A stretch of 33,748 nucleotides of DNA from a virus (Duplodnaviria; Heunggongvirae; Uroviricota; Caudoviricetes), in IMG/VR virus record IMGVR_UViG_2718218139_000002; one strand, 5' to 3'. The notes beneath the pieces are model-generated. The model was not told the origin of the DNA. It worked only from the letters and a program-made list of their open reading frames with translations, and searched no databases. Below, piece after piece: positions 10,635 through 11,201 of this stretch (position 1 is the stretch's first letter; each line of letters opens with the position of its first letter). Both the position numbers and the translations under genes were made by a program.

Positions 10635-11201
10635 ATGGCTAAACCAGCGCGAAGACGATGTAACCGTAAAAGAGAAGATTTAACTGTTAAAAGGATATTT
10701 GAGTTACTAAGTTTCGATAAATCTACCGGGGTATTTAGATGGAAAGTTCCCACTCAGGGAAGGATAGCATTAAATAGTGTTGCTGGAACTTTTGATTCCA
10801 ACGGTTATTCAATGATCATGATAGATGGGCGTAGATATAAAACTCACGTCTTAGTTTTTTACATAACTCATAATCGTTGGCCTGCTGGTCAAATTGACCA
10901 CGTTAATGGAATTAGGACCGACAATAGGCCAGAAAATTTAAGAGAATGCCTGCCAATAGAAAATTCAAGAAATATAAGGATCCGAAAGAATAGCAAATCA
11001 GGTTGCAGAGGGGTTACTTGGCACAAACGACAGAAAAAATGGAATGTTAGGCTAGGATTCCATGGCAAGAGTAAACACTTCGGATGCTTTGATGATCTGG
11101 AGTTAGCGGTACTAGTTGCTGAAGAAGCCCGAGATAAGTATTACGGTGATTTTTCCGGCAACGAAAGGAGCACTTATGCGAATCTATCGAAGGAGATGTA
11201 A
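10635..11201 (+). CDS. HNH homing-type endonuclease with C-terminal AP2-like DNA-binding domain
   Basis: HNH-like segment [46 protein letters not shown], then AP2-like [37 protein letters not shown]; GGAGGA ribosome-binding site; first 9 residues MAKPARRRC match the lambda NinG N-terminus as recalled. Confidence 0.75.

Follow-up and report, generated by a model that had tools for sequence, protein, structure and literature searches.

In a P22-like or lambdoid prophage represented by 33,748 nt of DNA (hereafter 'the window', meaning the whole stretch analysed), the 5' end of ninG has been exchanged for a cassette that carries an HNH-AP2 gene and a substitute ninG 5' end. We think it probable that this gene encodes a homing endonuclease of the HNH-AP2 (I-HmuI-like) type, is free-standing within the 5' end of ninG and spreads by gene conversion, presumably through cleavage of alleles that lack it (HNH−, as opposed to HNH+). 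On our best reading, the spread extends over lambdoid and Shiga-toxin (Stx) prophages. The features of the locus are listed in Table 1.

Table 1. Features of the HNH-ninG locus, in window coordinates.
Feature	Position	Strand	Description
Lambda-type segment	10622–10663	+	Last bases of ninF, ninG ribosome-binding region and first 29 nt of ninG
GAGGA in the ninG ribosome-binding region	10622–10626	+	The ATG at 10635 is now the HNH start
HNH-AP2 endonuclease ORF (candidate)	10635–11201	+	188 aa; residues 1–9 from ninG, approximately 16–175 conserved HNH and AP2, last approximately 8 overlapping the new ninG start
RRRCK-codon repeat, copy 1	10653–10666	+	CGAAGACGATGTAA
Cassette	10664–11259	+	596 nt, replacing 64 nt of lambda-type ninG (lambda 42461–42524); boundaries from the lambda alignment
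Shine-Dalgarno sequence of downstream ninG	11165–11170	+	AAGGAG, within the HNH 3' end, 5 nt before the ATG at 11176
Chimeric complete ninG/rap	11176–11778	+	200 aa; Pfam NinG, 281.6 bits; phrog_171, 9e-118
Divergent ninG 5' segment	11176–11259	+	84 nt, 28 codons, GC 29.8 per cent
RRRCK-codon repeat, copy 2	11188–11201	+	CGAAGGAGATGTAA
Lambda-type ninG remainder	11260–11778	+	Right-hand homology arm; 97.3 per cent identical to lambda 42525–43043

Homology to lambda ends at position 10663 and restarts at 11260 (lambda 42525). The interval contains the body of the HNH gene and 28 divergent ninG codons, the latter with a new Shine-Dalgarno sequence and ATG of their own. The GC content of the cassette is 37.8 per cent, compared with 51.6 per cent for the lambda segment that it replaces and 48.9 per cent for the remainder of ninG, and in every HNH+ allele the 64-nt lambda-type segment is swapped for an AT-rich version that is approximately 55 per cent identical to it. 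HNH+ and HNH− alleles thus differ by replacement with discrete boundaries (596 nt for 64 nt) and not by insertion. A sequence-only reading of this DNA had proposed a homing endonuclease that inserted into the ninG 5' end and was repaired by a start duplication. Its endonuclease part agrees with the domain content, the presence/absence polymorphism and the existence of insertion-free alleles, which are described below, whereas its insertion has to give way to a replacement. The duplication has to be abandoned: the second start does not repeat the first, as the two are alike only in their RRRCK codons (12 of 14 nt), and it lies in a divergent segment of 30 per cent GC that always travels with the HNH gene. 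A simple insertion with target duplication is rejected on the grounds that no more than these 12 nucleotides are shared and that the 5,426 complete E. coli genomes searched contain no single-piece match above 87 per cent to the allele expected from precise excision (10622–10663 joined to 11202–11400). The short RRRCK-codon identity reflects homologous codons of two NinG N-termini; its second copy also includes the TAA stop codon of the HNH ORF. A consensus scan detected neither a promoter nor a terminator within the cassette.

The left edge of the cassette falls inside the ninG coding sequence. Positions 10622–10663 are identical to lambda 42419–42460 at 40 of 42 sites (pairwise E-value of 6e-15) and occupy the syntenic position, and therefore the MAKPARRRC start of the HNH ORF is due to homology with ninG and not to chance, as the sequence-only reading had maintained. 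The lambda segment comprises the end of ninF and the first 32 nt of the RefSeq ninG CDS; NinG of lambda is annotated in RefSeq from one ATG codon further upstream, and most alleles have the second ATG only. The same sequence precedes HNH+ as well as HNH− alleles, and in Escherichia coli UTME-3 the HNH start is overlapped by ninF exactly as the ninG start is in lambda. MAKPARRRC is absent from all 14 HNH homologues compared, which are at most 47 per cent identical to the window protein, so it is not a common N-terminus of unrelated HNH proteins, and the idea of a ninG-derived start survives this comparison. Instead, the homologues begin with M-x(3-6)-LTxxxLRxLLxYDPETGVFRWK, a few residues before the conserved motif. 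Because the nine residues are missing from these homologues and residues 1–11 of the structure model are disordered, they are best seen as a borrowed translation start outside the enzyme fold. The HNH ORF is thus fused in frame to the site at which ninG translation begins, the possibility that the earlier reading had offered beside insertion, and with the cassette beginning after ninG codon 9, the nuclease would be translated from the ribosome-binding site and ATG of ninG itself. An imperfect 20-nt tandem repeat (AGACGATGTAACCGTAAAAG / AGAAGATTTAACTGTTAAAAG, window 10653–10693) spans the left junction. Microhomology used in the original fusion may have left this repeat, or it may be a chance feature of purine-rich sequence; we dropped the former interpretation because the repeat is too weak to interpret in such a context.

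By profile comparison and predicted fold, the encoded protein has the domain make-up of homing endonucleases (HNH_3 plus AP2). Pfam HNH_3 matches residues 68–107 with 42.7 bits (cut-off 24.8), and the PHROG family phrog_99 ('HNH endonuclease') matches the ORF with an E-value of 1.4e-71. The single-sequence AP2 score (22.2 bits) is under the Pfam cut-off of 33.3, but a profile of 16 sequences (the 188-aa protein and 15 homologues) matches the AP2 domains of WRI1 (5e-11), TEM1 (5e-7) and ERF1 (4e-3), as well as the HNH domain of I-HmuI (3.6e-8). Residues D88, H89, N101 and N110 are invariant in the 16-sequence alignment and line up with the DH...N...N motif of I-HmuI. The AlphaFold model has a mean pLDDT of 83.6, with values below 50 at residues 1–11 and 181–188. 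Its top Foldseek match in the PDB is I-HmuI (1u3e_M; probability 1.00, a modest E-value of 8e-3, TM-score 0.34, 98 columns), and the AP2 domain of ERF1 superposes on it with an rmsd of 1.3 Å over 51 residues.

All relatives found are at most 47 per cent identical to the protein, with none between 47 and 99 per cent. They are small stand-alone genes in phage contigs; among GTDB species representatives, the only match is from Planctomycetota (39 per cent identity), and a 40-aa word-indexed protein search yielded nothing beyond fragments of the gene itself. A donor lineage, in which an HNH gene with its native start would lie beside a variant-type ninG, was not found in searches that included a library of 1.84 billion representative sequences and the GTDB species representatives. 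One of the nearest relatives (P0004, 44 per cent identity) directly follows the T7 endonuclease I gene in a metagenomic T7-like contig (L221, 1033–1927). T7 endonuclease I is a junction resolvase, and this relative thus adjoins a gene for a junction-resolving nuclease, as the window HNH gene adjoins ninG/rap, which may be a coincidence.

Downstream of the HNH gene, ninG is rebuilt as a chimera. The claim that the HNH 3' end overlaps a complete ninG with a variant N-terminus is borne out: the last 26 nt of the HNH ORF lie within a 200-aa ninG ORF whose Pfam match spans profile positions 5–192 of 193. The first 28 codons of this ORF are unlike the first 32 of lambda ninG, and yet all four N-terminal cysteines, as read from the sequence, are kept (C8, C10/C11, C25 and C29). 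Similar motifs occur in distant NinG proteins (RRRCKCC...PKYHNQTWC in P0044 and the start MRKIRRRCK in P0027). Given this cysteine pattern and these motifs, the variant N-terminus looks like a genuine NinG N-terminus of a divergent lineage. With the 28 AT-rich codons, NinG is complete again and its cysteine pattern is preserved.

The variant ninG 5' end and the HNH gene occur together. Of 52 IMG/VR loci with the variant NinG N-terminus, 51 have upstream DNA that can be read, and in each of these the HNH gene is the immediate upstream neighbour; in the fetched piece of the remaining locus the upstream part is cut off, and its contig does carry the HNH gene. Among phage records, the variant 5' segment is present in HNH+ ones only. 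An HNH-free variant 5' end was detected neither in the phage records (by tblastn), nor in IMG/VR (by a degenerate DNA pattern), nor in 5,426 complete E. coli genomes, and the library of 1.84 billion representatives holds no HNH-free variant NinG N-terminus. The lambda-type ninG alleles retrieved through a shared 26-mer likewise fall into two classes, one with the lambda-type 5' end and without HNH and the other with the variant 5' end and with HNH, with no intermediates.

We compared 30 distinct HNH+ alleles with 71 distinct HNH− alleles. The insertion-free alleles that the sequence-only reading called for do exist: HNH− alleles match both flanks, in some cases exactly (the pairs L023/L184 and L063/L126 each show 0 differences in 519 nt), and an identical 102-nt left flank is found in seven HNH+ and six HNH− loci. 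Nucleotide diversity of the cassette is 0.46 per cent across the 30 loci (1.0 per cent at third codon positions of the HNH ORF). In the 519-nt remainder of ninG it is 3.5 per cent in HNH+ loci (7.2 per cent at third positions) and 3.3 per cent in HNH− loci (7.4 per cent), and the divergence between the two classes is 3.6 per cent, that is, they are not differentiated. Both classes draw on the same pool of haplotypes in the ninG remainder; the two also have similar frequencies of the SNPs that lie 8 and 32 nt beyond the right boundary and, on the left side, of the ninF haplotypes. For the SNP 8 nt off the cassette, all four combinations with cassette presence and absence are seen, and at least six right-flank haplotypes are found with one and the same cassette haplotype. 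These numbers come from databases that are heavily biased toward enterohaemorrhagic E. coli (EHEC) clones, and part of the 7-fold contrast between cassette and flank is due to a mosaic junction at the ninG end, as flank diversity is uneven (2–3 per cent beside the cassette, 0.5 per cent at 11372–11471 and 6–9 per cent near the ninG 3' end). The history of the cassette is decoupled from that of its flanks, and the cassette has recently spread onto diverse backgrounds, a pattern that general recombination could also give. Within the HNH ORF, 12 polymorphisms are non-synonymous and 11 are synonymous, the common ones being synonymous. Together with an intact frame in 35 of the 36 distinct IMG/VR copies, this pattern suggests that the ORF is under purifying selection.

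How the cassette reached so many backgrounds can be explained in more than one way. It may have entered a lambda-type ninG once and since been moved by general lambdoid recombination alone, an account that we regard as possible but rather unlikely. The partner at entry would have been a divergent AT-rich phage, with illegitimate recombination forming the left junction and homologous recombination the right one, and the nuclease might serve to attack competing phages or host DNA, might start recombination or might merely be tolerated. All copies share one identical left junction, which implies a single fusion event and suits such a history, as do the heterogeneous diversity of the flanks, the absence of relatives at 47–99 per cent identity and the mosaic junctions immediately around the gene (upstream, either ninF or a low-GC ORF; downstream, differing Q genes with or without ninH). 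Lambdoid phages are, moreover, highly mosaic, and homologous recombination in polylysogens could spread a young module without any endonuclease. However, flank SNPs as close as 8 nt to the cassette are shuffled while the cassette itself has barely diverged, a combination that would require many recent exchanges exactly at its edges. The intact ORF with its signs of purifying selection and an architecture of the homing endonuclease type also argue against a module that is only carried along.

Two further readings concern the nature of the ORF, and both fare worse. That the HNH ORF represents a gene in decay or an artefact of annotation, with a functionless start fusion, is very unlikely. Damaged copies are known, though rare (a frameshift in locus L112 and a 104-aa fragment, P0003), and the predicted length depends on the start that a gene caller chooses (188, 201 or 215 aa); yet the ORF is intact in nearly all distinct IMG/VR copies and, with at least 99 per cent identity, in 531 E. 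coli genomes, its catalytic residues are conserved, its structure model is confident, and the ATG at 10635 is the only start common to both upstream contexts. Still less credible, to the point of being almost negligible, is a self-splicing intron or intein in ninG, whose splicing would yield a joined NinG. Deletion of 10664–11201 does join both ninG parts in frame, and the upstream 'exon' and the HNH ORF share one reading frame. An intein is nevertheless excluded by the HNH ORF, which ends in a stop codon and lies in a different frame from the downstream ninG. For an intron, the 538 nt are almost all ORF and would leave no room for a ribozyme core, and an Rfam search at E-values up to 10 returned no group I or group II intron or other relevant RNA family. 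A good Shine-Dalgarno sequence and an ATG, in any case, give a stand-alone NinG that needs no splicing to be complete.

We therefore return to a homing endonuclease gene as the preferred explanation. The nin operon is expressed in lytic growth of lambda, and the nuclease would be expressed with it, during lytic growth or induction in a cell that holds several lambdoid prophages or phages. It would then nick or cut an HNH-free, lambda-type ninG, putatively in or near the GC-richer 64-nt segment, that is, in the part of ninG that encodes the N-terminal cysteine cluster; enzymes of the I-HmuI type are nickases. Repair of the break by recombination off the HNH+ allele would copy the cassette. The HNH+ allele itself would probably be immune through its substitute ninG 5' end, because the 64-nt segment is replaced there. 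What we infer, then, is cleavage, the position of the target, immunity and a spread that is endonuclease-driven rather than passive. AP2 domains have been reported to prefer GC-rich targets (PMC10448857), and the higher GC content of the replaced segment fits this preference, although the match is suggestive only. More tentatively, we can combine these elements into one scenario, in which active homing at the lambda-type ninG 5' end is coupled to capture of the ninG start and to an immune surrogate N-terminus, and in which the breaks made by an active cassette would drive conversion among co-resident lambdoid prophages of EHEC, thereby helping to shuffle the neighbouring ninH/Q/stx regulatory region.

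The locus has counterparts among known mobile genes. The combination of HNH and AP2 is described as a homing endonuclease family in PMC10448857 and PMC5714182, both of which cite Magnani et al. 2004. Members such as 'IPA-HNH' of Vibrio phage ICP1 share with the protein described here an N-terminal HNH_3 domain (DH...N...N) and a C-terminal AP2 domain, and they too are small stand-alone phage genes at boundaries of genetic exchange. In contrast, the ninG-associated gene shares at most 47 per cent identity with the relatives found, occurs in temperate lambdoid and Stx prophages instead of lytic phages, and has taken its start from the host gene. The T4-type genes mobE, segF and segG and intronless homing (PMC2988022, PMC2790892) offer a parallel in their location between or at the edge of conserved genes, their presence/absence polymorphism and the divergent flank of the endonuclease allele, which in those systems confers immunity, with co-conversion of flanks. 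The ninG element differs in that it lies inside the coding sequence of its neighbour and brings along a replacement 5' end and a translation start for it.

Fusion to a resident gene also has precedents. In gene 31 of the P22-like Salmonella phage epsilon34 (PMC2629481), the N-terminus of a resident gene is likewise fused in frame to an HNH homing endonuclease, but at another locus (the early left operon) and with another HNH lineage, and a replacement copy of the host-gene 5' end was not reported there. In mobE of Aeromonas phage Aeh1, located in nrdA, and in the 'hidden HNH' of a phage methylase of ShiLan (PMC11855218), an HNH gene has similarly invaded a coding gene without an intron or intein while the host gene still works. 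There, however, the host protein is split in two or contains an in-frame loop, whereas ninG is rebuilt, downstream of the endonuclease gene, as one complete ORF. A limited literature search found no paper that describes the ninG cassette. The cassette is a fairly ordinary case of a known kind of mobile gene, and the gene is already annotated generically.

It is also common in prophages of pathogenic E. coli. The HNH-ninG arrangement is present in 536 of the 5,426 complete E. coli genomes (approximately 10 per cent), at 99 per cent identity or more in 531 of them, with the gene annotated as 'HNH endonuclease'. Among phage records, SH2026Stx1 and AU6Stx1, both Stx1 phages, have it, with the HNH gene approximately 0.8 kb upstream of Q and 1.7 kb upstream of stx1A. 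Should the nuclease prove active, a homing endonuclease would be at work among temperate lambdoid and Shiga-toxin prophages, in which, to our knowledge, homing elements have hardly been studied. Because the cassette occurs in about a tenth of E. coli genomes and lies just upstream of Q (and, in Stx1 phages, of stx), break-stimulated recombination at ninG could contribute to the mosaicism of EHEC prophages. The architecture would also illustrate a simple route into a coding sequence without an intron or intein, in which the start of the host gene is borrowed and a replacement 5' end is supplied. If the nuclease is inactive, the cassette is one more mosaic module that is already annotated.

The surroundings of the cassette vary on both sides. 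Upstream, there are at least two contexts, ninF or a low-GC 590-aa ORF on the minus strand; downstream there are several, with or without ninH and with differing Q genes. The gene order in UTME-3 is ninF, HNH, ninG, ninH, ninI, Q. In the window, the 590-aa ORF (8317–10089, minus strand, GC 35 per cent) takes the place of lambda's ninC–ninF. It has no Pfam match and matches only phrog_9230, a family of unknown function; it is found at this position in SH2026Stx1 and AU6Stx1 as well. It appears to be an accessory gene that was inserted here, and no more than 42 nt separate its right boundary from the HNH cassette. A perfect hexamer tandem repeat (TATTTC, 5.8 copies, 10406–10440) lies in the AT-rich spacer before the HNH gene; alignments with related IMG/VR sequences break exactly at this repeat, which suggests a variable copy number. 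On the other side, the window lacks ninH (11775–12440), and the stop codon of ninG and the start of the phosphatase gene ninI overlap. In many related loci, ninG is followed by a 186-nt ninH segment, and a mosaic junction lies right at the ninG stop, where nucleotide diversity reaches its peak.

Further along the window, ORFs of an IS3-family transposase (rve integrase core and HTH_21; 14275–15431) follow the Q antiterminator gene. Between Q and a P22 gp10-like gene (20095), we noticed no terminase, portal or coat genes among the large ORFs, and the prophage may thus be defective. Within 29227–32740, a P22-type tailspike gene (head-binding domain and pectate-lyase-like fold) is followed by a tyrosine integrase gene on the minus strand, and the adjoining tRNA-Arg(CCT) gene (32666–32740) is the likely attachment site. 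The UTME-3 prophage with the ninG cassette carries a second, unrelated gene annotated with an 'HNH endonuclease signature motif' (L223, 5713–6225), which lies downstream of Q beside tRNA genes.
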